This document shows positions 51,577-61,350 of a stretch of 64,000 nucleotides of DNA, in pieces. The position numbers and the translations under genes are program-made. Below the pieces are notes generated by a model that saw nothing but the letters and a program-made list of their open reading frames with translations, was not told the origin of the DNA and ran no database searches. Source of the stretch: an uncultured Gemmatimonadaceae bacterium (GTDB lineage: Bacteria > Gemmatimonadota > Gemmatimonadetes > Gemmatimonadales > Gemmatimonadaceae); NCBI GenBank assembly GCA_963761305.1, contig CAVXGK010000002.1, forward strand, positions 2,912,001 through 2,976,000, read 5' to 3'. Within the stretch, counting starts at the first letter, position 1; the number at the start of each line of letters is the position of its first letter.

Positions 51577-52587
51577 ATGAGAAGCCTCCGAGCCGCCATT
51601 TCCTCATTTGCCCTGGTCGCCGCCCACTCGCTGTCGGCGCAGGTTCTCGATCTCACGGTCCACGACGTGGGCCTGGCCATCGGCGACAAGCCGACGATGA
51701 CCGGGCTACGGCTCAATTTCCGCGACGGTCAACTCGAGCGGATCACCGGCGCGAACGTCACCATCTGGGGGCCGTACAAACCGGTGCACGGCGTGGTGCA
51801 GGGACTCGCGCTTGGCATCCCGGTCACCGGCGCGAACCGAATCGACGGTTTCGGCGTCGGGTTGCTCGGCCTGAGCGCCGACAACTCGATCACGGGGCTG
51901 GGCGTTGCCGGCCTCGGTCTTGGGTCGGGCGGCGATCTGCACGGCATCATGCTGGGCGGCATCGGCGTCGGCTCCGGCGGCAGCGTCGAGGGCATCACGC
52001 TGGGAGGAATCGGCGTGGGAGCCGGCGGCCGACTGCGCGGATTTCAGGCCGGCGGAATCGGCGTCGGCTCCGGCGGCAACGTGAGCGGAATCAGTCTTGG
52101 CGGCGTCGGTGTCGGCGCGGGCGGAAATCTGACCGGTCTCGCCATCGGAGGTGTCGGGGTCGGCGGCGGCGGTGATTTCAAGGGAGTGGCCGTCGGCGGA
52201 GTCGGCCTCGGCGTGGGCGGCGACGCAACCGGGATCATGATCGGCGGCATTGGCGTCGGCGCCGGCGGAAAGTTGAAGGGGCTGACGATCGGCGGCATCG
52301 GCGTCGGCGCGCCGGCGATCAGCGGCGTCGTGCTGTCGCCCGTCGCGGCCGGCGGCCTCAACGTTCACGCGATCGTCGTGAGCGGACTCTATTTCAAGAT
52401 CGAAGACGCCGGCCGATTCGACGGCGGCGCGGTCAGCGCGATCTCATACATCCAGGGTGCCCAGCACGGCCTGACGATCGGTCTGTTCAACTACGCGCGC
52501 GAGCTCCACGGCGCACAGATCGGACTCCTCAACATCTCCGACAACGACGGGCACCGCCACGTGATTCCGATTCTCAGCATTCGCTGA
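51577..52587 (+). CDS. Secreted Gly-rich 15-aa-repeat protein (LA_2272-like surface repeat)
   Basis: Signal peptide; about 10 repeats of G(I/L).(L/I)GGIGVG(A/S)GG.(L/V); C-terminal GLTIGLFNYA..LHGAQIGLLNI. Confidence 0.75.
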   Translation: MRSLRAAISSFALVAAHSLSAQVLDLTVHDVGLAIGDKPTMTGLRLNFRDGQLERITGANVTIWGPYKPVHGVVQGLALGIPVTGANRIDGFGVGLLGLSADNSITGLGVAGLGLGSGGDLHGIMLGGIGVGSGGSVEGITLGGIGVGAGGRLRGFQAGGIGVGSGGNVSGISLGGVGVGAGGNLTGLAIGGVGVGGGGDFKGVAVGGVGLGVGGDATGIMIGGIGVGAGGKLKGLTIGGIGVGAPAISGVVLSPVAAGGLNVHAIVVSGLYFKIEDAGRFDGGAVSAISYIQGAQHGLTIGLFNYARELHGAQIGLLNISDNDGHRHVIPILSIR

Positions 52588-56528: not shown

Positions 56529-57581
56529 CTAGACCCGAGCCGAAATCACCTCTTCGGCGAAGCGCTCCATTTCCTCCAGCTGCGGGCTGCATTGAAGCAG
56601 CAGCAGGTCGACTCCCGCTTCGGCGAATTGCGCCGTCCGTTCCGCCACCTGGTCTGGCGTACCCACGAGCCCAGCGCGCAGTCCACGATTCGACACCGAG
56701 TAGTCCTGCAGGGTCACCTGCTGCTCGAGCTTCGTGTTGGCGATCCAGTCGCGGTAGTTCCCGTAACCCGGCGACCCGATCGCCACGTTCGTGATCCGCT
56801 CGATCTCCCTCTTGACCTCTGCCTCGGAATCGCGGACGATCGTGTACGCCGCGACGCCGAACTGCATCGGCGCGAGGTCCACGCCAAGCGCCTCGGACGC
56901 CTGCTCCCGGCGCCCGCGCATGTCGGCGATCTTGGGCGCGATCCGCTCCGGCGGATCGCCGTGCATGACGTACGCATCGCACTGGCGCGCGATCAGCGTC
57001 TTCGCCGCGTCGGATTCCCCGCCCGCGTAGATCGTCGGGCGCGGACGGCCCAGCTTCGGCACCGGCTTGGGCTCGAGCACGATGTCGTCGTGATTGTAGA
57101 ACTTGCCGTGGTACGTGAACGCCGGCTCCCGCCACGCGCCGTCCACGACGTCGAGCCACTCACGGGTGCGCGCGTAACGGTCGTCGTGCTCGTCGAACGC
57201 CGCGCCGAATCGGCGCGCTTCGTCCTTCCACCACGCCGAGACGACGTTGAGCGCGAGGCGTCCGCCTGAGATCTGATCGATGTTCGCCGCCTGCTTGGCG
57301 AGAATGGCCGGCGGATGGAACGACGGCCGCACGGCGACCATCAGCTCGAGCCGCTCCGTCACCGCCGCGAGCGCGGCGGCCGTGGACCAGGCATCCAGCG
57401 ACGGCGCGTTGATCCCCTTGATGTCGTTGAGCAACAGCTCGGCGATCAGCGTCAGATCGTAGCCGATCTCCTCGCTGCGCTGCGCCAGACGGCGCACGTA
57501 GTCCCACGACGCGGCCATCCCTTCGTCGTCGACGTTGCGCAGCCACCCGCCGAAGACCGGCAACCAGTAGCCGTATCTCAT
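56529..57581 (-). CDS. LLM-class flavin-dependent monooxygenase (SsuD/SfnG-like)
   Basis: MRYGYWLPVFGGW, LDAWSTAAALAAVT.RLELMVAVRP, DQISGGRLALNVVSAW, IYAGGES and LVGTPDQVAER; ATGA overlap with the ATP-grasp gene. Confidence 0.9.
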   Translation of the reverse strand: MRYGYWLPVFGGWLRNVDDEGMAASWDYVRRLAQRSEEIGYDLTLIAELLLNDIKGINAPSLDAWSTAAALAAVTERLELMVAVRPSFHPPAILAKQAANIDQISGGRLALNVVSAWWKDEARRFGAAFDEHDDRYARTREWLDVVDGAWREPAFTYHGKFYNHDDIVLEPKPVPKLGRPRPTIYAGGESDAAKTLIARQCDAYVMHGDPPERIAPKIADMRGRREQASEALGVDLAPMQFGVAAYTIVRDSEAEVKREIERITNVAIGSPGYGNYRDWIANTKLEQQVTLQDYSVSNRGLRAGLVGTPDQVAERTAQFAEAGVDLLLLQCSPQLEEMERFAEEVISARV

Positions 57582-58585
57582 GGCAAGCTCGCCTGGAACG
57601 TCGAGCGCTCCCGGGTGCGCTCGACGGTGCGGCGCGCCGGCGCGCCGCGCGAGACGAGGTAGTCGACGAGCTTCGCCCACGGATCGAATCCGATCACGTT
57701 CACCGGATCGGCCACGAAGTTGGACAGCGCGTTGACGTCGTAGAAGTAGTGTTTTCCGTCGCGGTCGTCGATCAGGTACTCGATGCCGCCGACGTCGAGT
57801 CCGGCGCGGCGCGAGATCGCCTCGACCTGCGCGATGATCTCCAGCGGCGCGTCGTAGCGTTCGACGCGAAGACCGGTCTTGGGCGCATCGACCGCGCACG
57901 CGCCGCGCACGAGCTCGACCCCGTCGGCAGTCTGGCAGGCATCCGCGGGACAGAGATCGAACGATCCCACCGCCGGGAACACCTTGATCGCATACAGATA
58001 TTTCCCGCCGAGTGTTTCGACGCGCACGATGTGGCCGTCGCGAAGCGGCGCCGATTCCTGCACGAGCGCCACGCCGTCGACTCCCAGCTCCACTTCGCCG
58101 CGCTCGATCGCGCCAGCGAGCGCGGTCTCCGACTCGTACCGCACGATGCCCGCGCCGCTCCCCCCGATGTTCGCCTTCACGAGCACCGGATAGCGCAGAC
58201 CCTTCGCCGCCTTCAACGCCACGGCAGGATTGTTGATCGCCCGTGCGCGCGGAAATGGAAGTCCGAGCTCCTCGAGGAGATCGAGCTGCGACGCCTTGGA
58301 GAGCTCGAACGCGTACACATGCGCGCCGTTCACGACCGGTACGCCGATGCGCTCGAGATGCCTCAGCCAGTGCAGCGTGTGAAACGTGGTCTGGCGATGA
58401 TTGCGGAGATACGCCGACGGGCTCGCCCGATTGAACACGAGCGAGTACGGCACGTCGTCCTCGGACGGATCGAACACGTGCAACGCGGCGTCGACGCGTT
58501 CGTACGGAAGTCCGCGCCGCTCGAGCTCGAGGAAGAGCGGCTTGAACCAGTCGGGATGTTCGTGGAAAACGGCGATCGGTTGCAT
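57578..58585 (-). CDS. ATP-grasp ligase (RimK-like)
   Basis: VFNRASPS, VVNG, SKASQL, YPVLVKANIGGSGAGI, LVQE, GGIEY and YDVNALSNF. Confidence 0.88.
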   Translation of the reverse strand: MQPIAVFHEHPDWFKPLFLELERRGLPYERVDAALHVFDPSEDDVPYSLVFNRASPSAYLRNHRQTTFHTLHWLRHLERIGVPVVNGAHVYAFELSKASQLDLLEELGLPFPRARAINNPAVALKAAKGLRYPVLVKANIGGSGAGIVRYESETALAGAIERGEVELGVDGVALVQESAPLRDGHIVRVETLGGKYLYAIKVFPAVGSFDLCPADACQTADGVELVRGACAVDAPKTGLRVERYDAPLEIIAQVEAISRRAGLDVGGIEYLIDDRDGKHYFYDVNALSNFVADPVNVIGFDPWAKLVDYLVSRGAPARRTVERTRERSTFQASLP

Positions 58586-58662
58586 GGCAGTCCTGAGTGT
58601 GGGTCGCGGGTCGTGCGGTTCGCGGGGTTTTCACTCGGGACCGGCGGCGACTTCAGGAGAAC

Positions 58663-58698
58663 AAAAACGCCCCGATCCCTTGGTGGGGAACCGGAGCG
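58663..58698 (-). terminator. Intrinsic terminator in the 5' leader (attenuator)
   Basis: On the - strand, CGCTCCGGTTCCC-CACCAA-GGGATCGGGGCG then TTTTTGTT; lies between the leader ORF and the ATP-grasp start. Confidence 0.8.
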
Positions 58699-58718
58699 CG
58701 AGTCGCTGCTAAGAAGTG

Positions 58719-58802
58719 CTAGATGCGAACGCCCAGAGCCTCACATGTCGGTTGACACATGGGACACATGCACATACAACACATGGTTTGGGCGCGGCTC
58801 AT
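58719..58802 (-). CDS. Putative Cys/Met-rich leader peptide (27 aa)
   Basis: MSRAQTMCCMCMCPMCQPTCEALGVRI*; 6 Cys (5 of them TGT) and 4 internal Met. Confidence 0.75.
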   Translation of the reverse strand: MSRAQTMCCMCMCPMCQPTCEALGVRI

Positions 58803-58809
58803 GGCACAG

Positions 58810-58837
58810 AAGGTAAGGCTGGGTGGAAGCGCGTCAA
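58810..58837 (-). promoter_or_regulatory. sigma70-like promoter giving a leaderless transcript
   Basis: TTGACG-N16-TACCTT, then 7 nt, then the leader ATG; no SD sequence in between. Confidence 0.6.
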
Positions 58838-58869
58838 GGCTCGTCACACAATCTTGACGAACCCTTTCA

Positions 58870-61350
58870 TCAGAACTTCGATTCGAGGTACAGATCGACA
58901 CGGAACTGCTTTCGCGGATACAGGCCGCGAGCGACGTCGAAACGAAATAGGCCATCGAGGAACGACACGCCCGTGCCGACGCCGCTCATCGGTCGGCCAA
59001 TTTGACTGAGCTGTGTGCGATCGCCGACCCACCCGAGATCGGCGAACAGCGCTGGGCGGATTCCCGCGTCATTCGTGCCGAGCTCGGCCCGCGTCAACCA
59101 AAACGCGTTCCCGCTTTGTGCGGTATCAGGGCTCTGTCCGCGCACCGTCTGCGAACCACCGAGATACCATCGGCGCTGCGGCGGCAGTTCCCCGACCGAT
59201 GCACCCGCTGACGCCGTCAGCGACGCGGCCACGCGACCAAGTCCGTGCGACGCGGTCACGTCGAATGCGGCCCGTCCATACGCGGAATCGCCGGTCCCGA
59301 TCGCGCTCTCGAGACGCAGGCTCGAGAAGATGCGCAGCCCCTGCGGGTCGAGTCCCGACACGTCATCGATGTGGGCCGAGAAACCCAGGTACCCGCCGCG
59401 TTGCGCGACGAGGTTCGCCGGAAAATCGGAGCCGTCGACGGCGAAGTTCGTCTTTACCGCCGCGGTGCGCTCCTGTTCGGCGAACACACGCCACCCGAGC
59501 TGCGCGCCGCCGCCGAACGCGCCGTCGAGCGAACGCGTGAGGTCAACGCCCGACGCGCGATAGTAGAATCCTTCGTCGCGCCCGAACATCAGCGCCGAGA
59601 ACGAGCTTCCGAAGCTGAGCGGATGTCCCCAGTCGCTGGCGCTCACGAGACGGTTGTACGCCGTGAATCGAATCGTCTTCGTGAGGTTCGAACGCGCCAC
59701 CGAGAGCTCCACGTTGGGCTCGAGGTCGGCGAACCCGAGGCGCCCCACCGCCATTCCGCTGTAGCCGCCGCCAAGTTGCTGCTCGACCGACGCGCCGACC
59801 GAGAAGCCTTCGACGCGATTATAGCGCATGAGCGCCGGCCCATACGAGATCGTCGGCGGAGGCAGCATCGACAACCGGAATTGCAGCGGCGCCTGCGCGT
59901 CGAGCGAGAGCGCCTCCGCCTTGAGATCGGCGAGATCCTTGGCGGCGAAGAGCTCTTCGCCGGCGTCATAGATCGACGGCGGCAGATCGGGCGAGTGGGA
60001 GAGCTTCGCCGTGTCGCACGGCACGCGCAGCGCCACCGGCATCGAGACGTCGTAGCGGCGAGTGGTCGTCACGCGCACGTCGGACGTGTCGCACTGCGTC
60101 GAGCGCGGCTCCGCCTTCTTGAGTCCTTGTCGGATCGAGTCGCGCACCGCTCGCGAATGCACGCGGCTGGCCGTGCGCACGGAATCGCGCCACGCGATTC
60201 TCGCTTCTTCACTCAACGAGTCGGGCGGTTGCCCCCGACCCGGTTGAAGATGAATCATCGGCAGCGTGTCGGTGCCGTTCACGCTCGCATACTTGAAGCT
60301 CTCTTCGATCTTCACCGGCACGCGCATGAAGCTGACCTGCGCGTAGGCCTCGGCGAGTCGAAGACGCGGCAACCAGAAACGACCCTCGTGCAGGCTGTAC
60401 TCGACCGCGATCGCGGAGACTTCCGCCTTCATCGGCGTGATGAACGGCTTGACCCACACCGGGACGTCGTCCATCGACTTGGGATCGTCCTCGGTCGCCA
60501 CGGCCCAGATGTCCATCGGGACCGACAACCGGTACGCCGCGCGGACGAGCTGTCCTGAATGCGTATCGAACCACAGCGAGCCGACGCCCAGATTCCATTT
60601 CGGCTGCCGCGGCCGAACGCGCAGCTCGCGCAGCTGAATGACTTTTCCGTCCGGCAGCTTGAAGCTCACGGAATCGCCGGTCTCGTACGTGTAGTACGCC
60701 TCGGCCCCATCGGCGATCGGATGGACGATCTCGGTTTCGTCGACCTGGGCGCGGGCGATGTCACCGCCGCCGACCCACAACGGCTCGTATCCCGGATAGT
60801 AGGGGATCTCCCCCATCAGGTCGGGATCGTTCGTGTCGTTGTTGATCTCGACGTCAGCCTTGGTTCCCAGCATGGGGGCGGCGTTGCGCGCGCCCTTCAC
60901 GTCGACGTATGCGCCGACGCCTTGGCGCCACCGCACGTGCGTCGCCGCCTCGTGTCGAAACAGAAGCCGGTCGCGGCCGATGCTCCCGAATCCGAAGCCC
61001 ACGGAGATGCGCTCGTACGTCGTCGCGTCGTAGGCAACCAACGCCGAATCCTGTTTGAGGCGCGCGGCGCGTGCGGCTAGCAGCGTTATCTTGGCCGTCG
61101 CGTCCTTGAACGCCGTTGCCTGAAGCTCCGCGGTGACCGCGCGGCGCACGCCCTGGTGCCGCCGCCCACTCGCCGAATCACGCGGCTCGTCGGTCGTGCT
61201 GTCGCGAACGACGGGCGTTCGTCCGCGCCTGGCCTGCTGCGCCGGAGCCGACGCCGGGGTCGGGGGAGCCGGCGGCGTCTTTGGGGGCTGAGCGGGGGGC
61301 GAACCCTGAAAGTTCAGCGCGGCGACAACGCCGAAAACGAGGAGAATCAC
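58870..61350 (-). CDS. Outer-membrane beta-barrel protein (Omp85/TamA/ShlB-like C-terminus)
   Basis: Signal peptide, RYNRVEG, LGGSQTVRG, ALFADLGW and amphipathic strands ending in terminal Phe (LESKF). Confidence 0.75.
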   Translation of the reverse strand: MILLVFGVVAALNFQGSPPAQPPKTPPAPPTPASAPAQQARRGRTPVVRDSTTDEPRDSASGRRHQGVRRAVTAELQATAFKDATAKITLLAARAARLKQDSALVAYDATTYERISVGFGFGSIGRDRLLFRHEAATHVRWRQGVGAYVDVKGARNAAPMLGTKADVEINNDTNDPDLMGEIPYYPGYEPLWVGGGDIARAQVDETEIVHPIADGAEAYYTYETGDSVSFKLPDGKVIQLRELRVRPRQPKWNLGVGSLWFDTHSGQLVRAAYRLSVPMDIWAVATEDDPKSMDDVPVWVKPFITPMKAEVSAIAVEYSLHEGRFWLPRLRLAEAYAQVSFMRVPVKIEESFKYASVNGTDTLPMIHLQPGRGQPPDSLSEEARIAWRDSVRTASRVHSRAVRDSIRQGLKKAEPRSTQCDTSDVRVTTTRRYDVSMPVALRVPCDTAKLSHSPDLPPSIYDAGEELFAAKDLADLKAEALSLDAQAPLQFRLSMLPPPTISYGPALMRYNRVEGFSVGASVEQQLGGGYSGMAVGRLGFADLEPNVELSVARSNLTKTIRFTAYNRLVSASDWGHPLSFGSSFSALMFGRDEGFYYRASGVDLTRSLDGAFGGGAQLGWRVFAEQERTAAVKTNFAVDGSDFPANLVAQRGGYLGFSAHIDDVSGLDPQGLRIFSSLRLESAIGTGDSAYGRAAFDVTASHGLGRVAASLTASAGASVGELPPQRRWYLGGSQTVRGQSPDTAQSGNAFWLTRAELGTNDAGIRPALFADLGWVGDRTQLSQIGRPMSGVGTGVSFLDGLFRFDVARGLYPRKQFRVDLYLESKF

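Follow-up and report, generated by a model that had tools for sequence, protein, structure and literature searches.

A putative leader-peptide attenuator for sulfur amino acids upstream of an ATP-grasp/luciferase-like monooxygenase operon in Gemmatimonadaceae

Results

Genes and Features at the Locus

The window (the whole stretch of DNA analyzed, 64,000 nucleotides) carries on its minus strand a gene for a RimK-like ATP-grasp protein followed by a gene for a luciferase-like flavin monooxygenase (LLM), and upstream of this operon lie a predicted promoter, a short cysteine- and methionine-rich open reading frame (ORF) and a predicted intrinsic terminator (Table 1). The Atlas clusters of the ATP-grasp protein comprise Gemmatimonadota and Acidobacteriota and carry RimK/CPSase Pfams. 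For the LLM, the nearest structures are 3RAO and 8VW6, and the best model is SfnG, with a score (233.9 bits) below the cut-off of 383. Substrate residues of SfnG are given as Q53, R55, Y60, W11, and W121 in the accessible text of PMC11588060; when the LLM was aligned by reading with 8T0U, both Trp residues were kept and Q53, R55, and Y60 were not. With a score under the NCBIfam cut-off and three of five substrate residues missing, the LLM was not accepted as an SfnG dimethylsulfone monooxygenase. An earlier note on this DNA had spoken of an SsuD/SfnG-type enzyme, and of this claim the family relation stands whereas the SfnG identity does not; judged from its sequence, the LLM is probably alkanesulfonate/SfnG-related and SfnG-like in family only. 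The putative role of the operon is likely organosulfur scavenging.

Some orthologous operons begin with a gene for an SsuE/MsuE-like FMN reductase, and among the neighbor genes of the orthologous operons no sulfur link beyond this reductase was found. In Spirosoma, genes for two amino-acid permeases and an LLM come after the homolog, and the Bacillus and Pediococcus plasmid homologs (33%) are uninformative. The usual upstream neighbor of the operon encodes an 826-aa protein with a weak Omp85/ShlB C-terminus (58870-61350, minus strand; 32 ORF calls in its cluster). No terminator was predicted between this gene, which runs in the same direction, and the leader promoter, so that the leader hairpin may also end the upstream transcript. 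Elsewhere in the window, a 336-aa secreted-looking protein with many GxGVG-type repeats (51577-52587, plus strand) had no NCBIfam match.

Table 1. Features of the leader region and operon, with positions in the window, and loci of relatives with tandem regulators
Feature	Position	Strand	Basis or remark
-35 hexamer TTGACG (predicted)	58832..58837	-	sequence
-10 hexamer TACCTT (predicted)	58810..58815	-	sequence; 16-nt spacer to -35; 7 nt to ATG
Leader ORF, 27 codons plus stop	58719..58802	-	ATG at 58802, stop 58721-58719
Segment 1, predicted protector-helix strand	58789..58794	-	pairs with segment 2 when ribosome-free; MFE fold
Cys/Met tract, codons 7-16, predicted sensing stretch	58755..58784	-	9 of 10 codons Cys or Met
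Conserved hairpin over last Met-Cys codons	58740..58763	-	10 pairs, 4 with two-sided changes
Segment 2, 5' strand of predicted antiterminator	58725..58735	-	pairs with 58706-58694
Segment 3, common to antiterminator and terminator 5' arm	58694..58706	-	folding/duplex analysis
Intrinsic terminator hairpin and T tract (predicted)	58657..58699	-	stem 58699-58667, 13 pairs
Hairpin over likely ATP-grasp ribosome-binding site	58590..58641	-	tentative second layer
RimK-like ATP-grasp protein, 335 aa	57578..58585	-	TIGR00768 51.5 bits, cut-off 143
Luciferase-like flavin monooxygenase (LLM)	56529..57581	-	PF00296; start overlaps ATP-grasp stop
Tandem loci	L028:1150, L050:2949, L101:2547, L105:3635		SAM-II plus Cys/Met ORF

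The elements described earlier for the minus strand, namely the promoter hexamers, an ATG lacking a purine-rich Shine-Dalgarno (SD) sequence on inspection, the 27-codon ORF with its Cys/Met tract and, after the stop, a hairpin with T tract ahead of the ATP-grasp/LLM operon, were all found in their places, with 133 nt between the ORF stop and the ATP-grasp ATG. From the position of the hexamers we infer that transcription starts at or beside the leader ATG, which would make the leader ORF leaderless; across leaders, A and T are enriched at the positions matching the -10 hexamer. The promoter scores 8 of 12 against the consensus, a consensus promoter scan made no call (0 found), here or elsewhere in its range, and terminator-like sites are not rare by themselves (3 found, 2.0 expected), so that predicted promoter and terminator gain weight only because they are conserved.

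When all ATG-started ORFs of 8-61 codons in the 5.2-Mb genome were scanned, the leader was the sole one with nine Cys/Met codons in a 10-codon stretch, and the two runners-up had six each. Its consecutive Cys codons are a pair at codons 8-9. The TGT bias, earlier called unexpected, was confirmed, as five of the six Cys codons are TGT versus 18% genome-wide (1098 of 6108 in 1878 long ORFs; binomial P about 0.001). Codon 20, the sixth Cys, is probably not a sensing codon, because TGT occurs there in only 6 of 25 genus leaders and a ribosome at this codon does not favor the predicted antiterminator. Five leader peptides compared with NCBIfam matched no family, and an Rfam search of the stretch 58400-59100 gave no match to RF00521 up to an E value of 5; a match to Pxr was dismissed as chance-level (21 bits, cut-off 80). 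Among assembled contigs from two soil metatranscriptome runs, 5-8% of the words were present. One 242-nt contig (58705-58939) includes the promoter and stops shortly ahead of the terminator, such contigs being unable to show starts, ends or strand; it contains one extra in-frame Met-Cys pair when compared to the leader of the window.

Conservation of the Leader in Gemmatimonadota

Among 110 orthologous loci collected, 90 were distinct, and the closest orthologs belong to Gemmatimonadaceae. The 90 loci comprise 25 leaders of this clade plus one truncated copy, nine leaders of a second clade, two further leader-like ORFs, 45 loci with only a SAM-II-type motif, four tandem loci and four unexplained ones. 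Conservation of the Cys/Met ORF and the terminator in orthologs, proposed by the earlier note as a check, was borne out: 25 of 27 same-genus loci possess both in full and one more has the truncated copy, counts that overstate independence since orthologous loci are kin. In 24 of the 25 full same-genus leaders, the start is preceded at 34-36 nt by a TTG[AC]C-type hexamer. For 41 candidate ORFs, searched at 33-38 nt, a -35-like hexamer was present 34-37 nt upstream of an in-frame start in 34 and at exactly 35 nt in 26; the seven misses are L008, three tandem loci and three frames taken as chance.

Codon content varies within a fixed layout. Genus leaders have 4-10 Cys and 2-5 Met (averages of 7.0 and 3.4), in second-clade leaders Met outnumbers Cys (4.1 vs 2.6), and at least two internal Met codons occur in all 33 aligned leaders. 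In relatives the tract grows by six-base Met-Cys units, its indels are multiples of three, reading frame and stop position are kept, and in all 25 genus leaders its last codon lies 12-13 codons ahead of the stop. In the 3' half of the ORF, conservation is highest at codon position 3 (0.91 vs 0.85 and 0.84 at positions 1 and 2), whereas the ATP-grasp gene shows the reverse pattern (0.73 vs 0.92 and 0.96), which points to a constraint on the RNA and not on the peptide. TGT accounts for 111 of the 195 leader Cys codons (57%). A wobble-codon design is not claimed: TGT, and AAT in the Asn leader described below, are enriched, but TAC is the preferred codon of Tyr leaders, and the TGT excess can be accounted for by hairpins.

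In a phylum-wide search, 41 of 201 genomes matched, and 20 loci were taken from two other families. In 16 of these a leader ORF with Cys codons was present, and 12 of the 16 also have a terminator of -16 kcal/mol or lower. Cys occurs in every one of the 16 distant leaders; internal Met is lacking from two, and a third has just one Met. Among the loci with no leader, a SAM-II-like motif at L160 scores below the Rfam cut-off, L161 and L169 showed nothing, and L173 comes with no upstream DNA. Two distant loci (L162 and L163) have a leaderless ORF that ends in four Cys near its stop, with no Met and no terminator found, and look like the mycobacterial type. The four unexplained loci among the 90 are L066, L070, L022 and L052. 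The upstream regions of L066 and L070, about 150 nt long, are related to each other and contain no leader ORF and no Rfam match, although both loci are nested among leader-bearing ones in the tree; L022 lacks a leader, its ATP-grasp gene being joined in frame with an unrelated frame upstream, which may reflect mis-assembly; and at L052 the contig ends.

SAM-II Motifs at the Equivalent Position

In 45 of the 90 distinct loci, by pattern match, a SAM-II-type motif replaces the leader at the same position; where the leader ORF is missing, this motif and then a hairpin with T tract precede the operon. The Rfam model RF00521 (SAM_alpha, SAM-II) scored above its cut-off in 5 of 10 motif-only loci tried and in 4 of 6 motif-bearing loci of a second set, in which the other two reached 31 bits (E about 0.003); the remaining assignments rest on the pattern match. 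Four leader-only loci gave no RF00521 match, and no Cys-rich ORF was found within 450 nt upstream of SAM-II-led operons. In the four tandem loci, a SAM-II motif, a terminator-like hairpin, a Cys/Met ORF and a second terminator precede the same operon; the start of this Cys/Met ORF is not leaderless and shows no clear SD.

Regulator labels cluster on the tree of the 90 ATP-grasp proteins (11 changes vs 40 after shuffling), a quick, midpoint-rooted tree with weak deep branches that gives no order of gain and loss; the tandem locus L101 entered this comparison under the label 'other'. A link of the leader to sulfur is backed by SAM-II riboswitches at the same place in other lineages, which is the best independent evidence obtained. 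The Rfam family is named for alpha-proteobacteria, yet it is common among these Gemmatimonadaceae. In the same genome, a SAM-II match (43.7 bits) followed by a terminator-like hairpin also lies before a metH-like gene (L111:1501-1575; G000:C2:2538916-2538990).

RNA Structures and the Predicted Switch

None of 200 dinucleotide shuffles folds as well as the leader RNA (58802-58655; z -3.07). The alignment analyzed comprised 33 leaders, with two divergent leaders, the truncated copy, L083 and the tandem leaders omitted. Eleven terminator pairs are 99.7% paired in this alignment and three of them show two-sided changes, a level reached by 0 of 500 shuffles; T tracts are weak in second-clade leaders. 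One pair of the hairpin that spans the last Met-Cys codons, a structure that may act as a pause site or belong to the protector, varies between U-A (17 of the 33 leaders), C-G (8) and G-C (8), even where Cys becomes Trp.

Segment 2 has alternative partners, segment 1 near the start or the terminator 5' arm. Against shuffles, the duplex of segments 1 and 2 ranks above 95% in 17 of 33 leaders, with the leader of the window failing (p 0.10), and that of segments 2 and 3 does so in only 16 of 33. Five antiterminator core pairs are formed in 95.8% of the cells of the alignment, with one-sided changes only, and the conservation of segment 3 is not independent evidence for the antiterminator because the terminator also fixes this segment. 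The earlier note had drawn an antiterminator from the 3' part of the ORF: a pairing from there is indeed predicted, but its core runs from 58735-58725 into the terminator's own 5' arm, and a 5' protector helix is added.

The effect of ribosome position was modeled by masking the transcript to ten bases past the A-site codon and computing the cost of freeing the terminator 5' arm. For the leader of the window this cost amounted to 4.5 kcal/mol when ribosome-free, 7.5-10.6 with a ribosome at codons 7-16, and 3.8 with one at the stop, and the corresponding means for 33 leaders were 3.0, 7.9, and 3.4 kcal/mol. A ribosome on the Cys/Met codons favors the antiterminator in this model, in agreement with the stalling proposed by the earlier note, and so does a ribosome at codons 1-2 (9.0); one at the stop, or none, favors termination. 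The tract cost exceeds the stop cost by more than 1 kcal/mol in 29 of 33 leaders, four having no such gain. Compared with controls, it lies above the synonymous-recoding mean in only 22 of 33 leaders (7.9 vs 6.9) and above shuffles in 26, and for the leader of the window 1 of 40 recodings and 6 of 40 shuffles reach the observed value. An antiterminator that excludes the terminator, dependent on ribosome position, is obtained in silico with controls of moderate strength. A cruder pairing-probability measure separated the states poorly (0.87 vs 0.55), being confounded by local hairpins, and was abandoned for the opening energies. At equilibrium the full leader folds into the terminator, and the choice of the antiterminator must therefore be co-transcriptional, that is, kinetic.

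Downstream of the terminator, most genus leaders contain a second copy of its 5' arm, and the hairpin over the likely ribosome-binding site (RBS) might tentatively be regarded as a second-layer switch. In the folding model, freeing the terminator 3' arm eases RBS opening by more than 1 kcal/mol in 16 of 22 genus leaders; in the leader of the window RBS opening is unchanged between states (8.6 vs 8.9), in the second clade only 2 of 8 leaders respond, and three genus leaders lack the module and retain the other elements.

Parallel Leaders in the Same Genome

A genome scan for units of promoter, ATG, short ORF and terminator gave 48 candidates for examination, of which five were kept; besides the Cys/Met leader, two of the five have a clear codon run, and both share its promoter spacing. 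A Tyr-rich leaderless ORF of 25 codons with terminator (G000:C1:600025, minus strand; L114) precedes a DAHP synthase gene and a prephenate dehydrogenase-like gene and is kept in 20 of 20 loci (relatives L138-L156). An Asn-rich, AAT-rich leaderless ORF of 21 codons with terminator (G000:C1:276585, plus strand; L113) immediately precedes one of two tRNA-Asn genes in the genome and is kept in 20 of 22 loci (relatives L117-L136), all 20 same-genus loci being positive and the two misses being other genera. In three separate units the codon content matches the target gene, which argues that the ORFs are translated sensors.

Discussion

We propose that the leader is a leader-peptide transcription attenuator responding to sulfur amino acids, a reading to which we give a probability of roughly 0.86. 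Transcription would start at the ATG and translation would be leaderless. With no ribosome on the RNA, segment 1 is predicted to pair with segment 2, and the terminator would form. When Cys and Met are ample, the ribosome would reach the stop and cover segment 2, and the terminator would form again. A ribosome held on codons 7-16 would hide segment 1 and leave segment 2 free to capture the terminator 5' arm before the 3' arm is made, so that the polymerase is predicted to read through, by a kinetic choice. In this way scarcity of charged tRNA-Cys, and probably also of tRNA-Met, would slow the ribosome and allow transcription of the ATP-grasp/LLM operon. The attenuator suggested by the earlier note is supported by the conservation of ORF, promoter spacing, terminator and antiterminator together with the SAM-II replacement. 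Its further claim of a dual sensor holds in part: Cys would be the constant signal, whereas Met sensing is a prediction, two of 16 distant leaders having no internal Met. Given sulfur-amino-acid attenuation, we consider joint sensing of Cys and Met the probable arrangement.

A less probable reading is that the same attenuator senses Cys only and that the Met codons owe their presence to slippage of ATGTGY repeats and to RNA hairpins. This would fit the presence of Cys in every leader while three of the 16 distant ones have one internal Met or none, the excess of Cys over Met in the genus, the lengthening of the tract by six-base Met-Cys units, and the location of the last Met codon inside the conserved hairpin. 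It is harder to reconcile with two or more internal Met codons in all 33 aligned leaders, with a second clade in which Met prevails, and with the operon's alternative regulator sensing SAM, a Met derivative. Improbable is mainly translational control of the mycobacterial kind, in which a stalled ribosome unmasks the RBS and termination at the hairpin is constitutive or weak, also for the upstream gene. The hairpin over the likely RBS, the downstream copy of the terminator 5' arm in most genus leaders and the two distant leaders that end in a Cys run with no terminator speak for it, but the terminator, with its T tract, shows covariation, 133 nt separate the end of the ORF from the ATG, three genus leaders keep everything except the downstream module, and at the locus of the window RBS opening is the same in both states.

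RiPP clusters resemble the arrangement found here, with a Cys-rich short ORF beside an ATP-grasp gene and an oxygenase, and the C-terminus of the peptide looks conserved within the genus. That the Cys-rich peptide is itself the product, as a RiPP precursor or metal-binding mini-protein with the terminator setting stoichiometry, is nevertheless very improbable: Cys number (4-10 among genus leaders) and order are free to vary, conservation peaks at third codon positions, the peptides of other clades share no common C-terminus, a comparable ORF is missing from the 450 nt ahead of SAM-II-led operons, the score with the MvdD maturase model is 18.7 (cut-off 475), and the Spirosoma homolog sits with amino-acid permeases and an LLM. 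A graspetide-type precursor was rejected, as neither a conserved core peptide nor an MvdD-type maturase was found. Least probable of all is a ligand- or protein-binding leader RNA, or an arrest peptide, with tRNA charging uninvolved; several helices are conserved at the RNA level, as it would predict, but no riboswitch family matches at the locus (Pxr being at chance level), frame and stop are kept through tract indels in multiples of three, and the parallel Tyr and Asn leaders match their target genes.

Classical leader-peptide attenuators include trpL, hisL, thrL, pheL, and ilvL, of which thrL combines two amino acids, and comparative attenuator surveys of Vitreschak from 2004 and of the Lyubetsky group reportedly list Met codons in some thr leaders. 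The literature used for comparison comprised the accessible parts of 10.1101/834739, PMC1262725, PMC8632094, PMC13236596, PMC11588060, PMC2965389, and PMC9373788. Like the classical transcription attenuators described there (PMC1262725; PMC2965389), the present leader combines a short ORF and a run of cognate codons with predicted alternative 1:2, 2:3, and 3:4 helices and a predicted intrinsic terminator; unlike them, it uses Cys/Met codons, is apparently leaderless, occurs in Gemmatimonadota and precedes an operon outside known biosynthetic pathways. For mycobacterial polycysteine leaderless sORFs, the tested case frees a sequestered SD and is translational (Canestrari et al., 10.1101/834739), and mycobacterial cys leaders are described in the accessible text of PMC1262725 as having no conserved terminator hairpins. 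The present leader resembles these sORFs in its leaderless ORF (here by promoter spacing only), consecutive Cys codons and predicted first place on a probably sulfur-related transcript, whereas it differs in its covarying terminator, the mixing of Cys with Met and a run 12 codons before the stop; SD sequestration of the mycobacterial type with no terminator is not what the locus of the window shows. The uORFC-8-2 motif before cysS of Rhodobacterales is, in the accessible text, a predicted uORF with Cys codons and an intrinsic terminator (PMC8632094), having two tandem Cys, mostly UGC, before a synthetase gene, whereas here 4-10 Cys plus Met, TGT-rich, precede a two-enzyme operon. Other Gemmatimonadaceae have SAM-II riboswitches in this position ahead of the operon, also followed by a terminator-like hairpin, and a terminating SAM-II form has been predicted for S. 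meliloti metZ (accessible part of PMC9373788); SAM-II binds a metabolite, whereas the leader of the window, where no SAM-II is present, is predicted to be ribosome-based. Swaps of sensing systems are known for T-box versus leader peptide (accessible part of PMC2965389).

The core mechanism belongs to textbook knowledge, and Cys leaders have been published; the literature searched, with few subscription papers, contained no mixed Cys/Met attenuator of the terminator type, leaderless or otherwise, and no leader-peptide swap with SAM-II. Nor did it contain an attenuator for which reading of elongator Met codons, or of Cys and Met together, has been tested, the mycobacterial sORF table possibly including Met-rich cases, and the attenuator literature searched did not mention Gemmatimonadota. 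Whether Gemmatimonadota possess a leaderless dual Cys and Met sensor that can be swapped or stacked with SAM-II as a two-input gate, within a leaderless family including the Tyr and Asn leaders, is in our estimate an even question. If so, the stacked gate would read low SAM together with low charged Cys/Met tRNA, a spare tRNA-Asn would be under Asn codons, and DAHP synthase would be under Tyr codons. One operon offers a natural series of riboswitch only, leader peptide only and both in tandem, permitting a direct comparison of metabolite sensing with sensing of tRNA charge. Also, a widespread, uncharacterized ATP-grasp/LLM gene pair would be linked to sulfur supply, and leaderless ORFs are predicted to drive terminator-type attenuation outside actinobacteria. 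No attenuator before a tRNA-Asn gene was found in the literature searched, and the Asn leader, a candidate for feedback control of a spare tRNA gene, is arguably more unusual than the Cys/Met leader.
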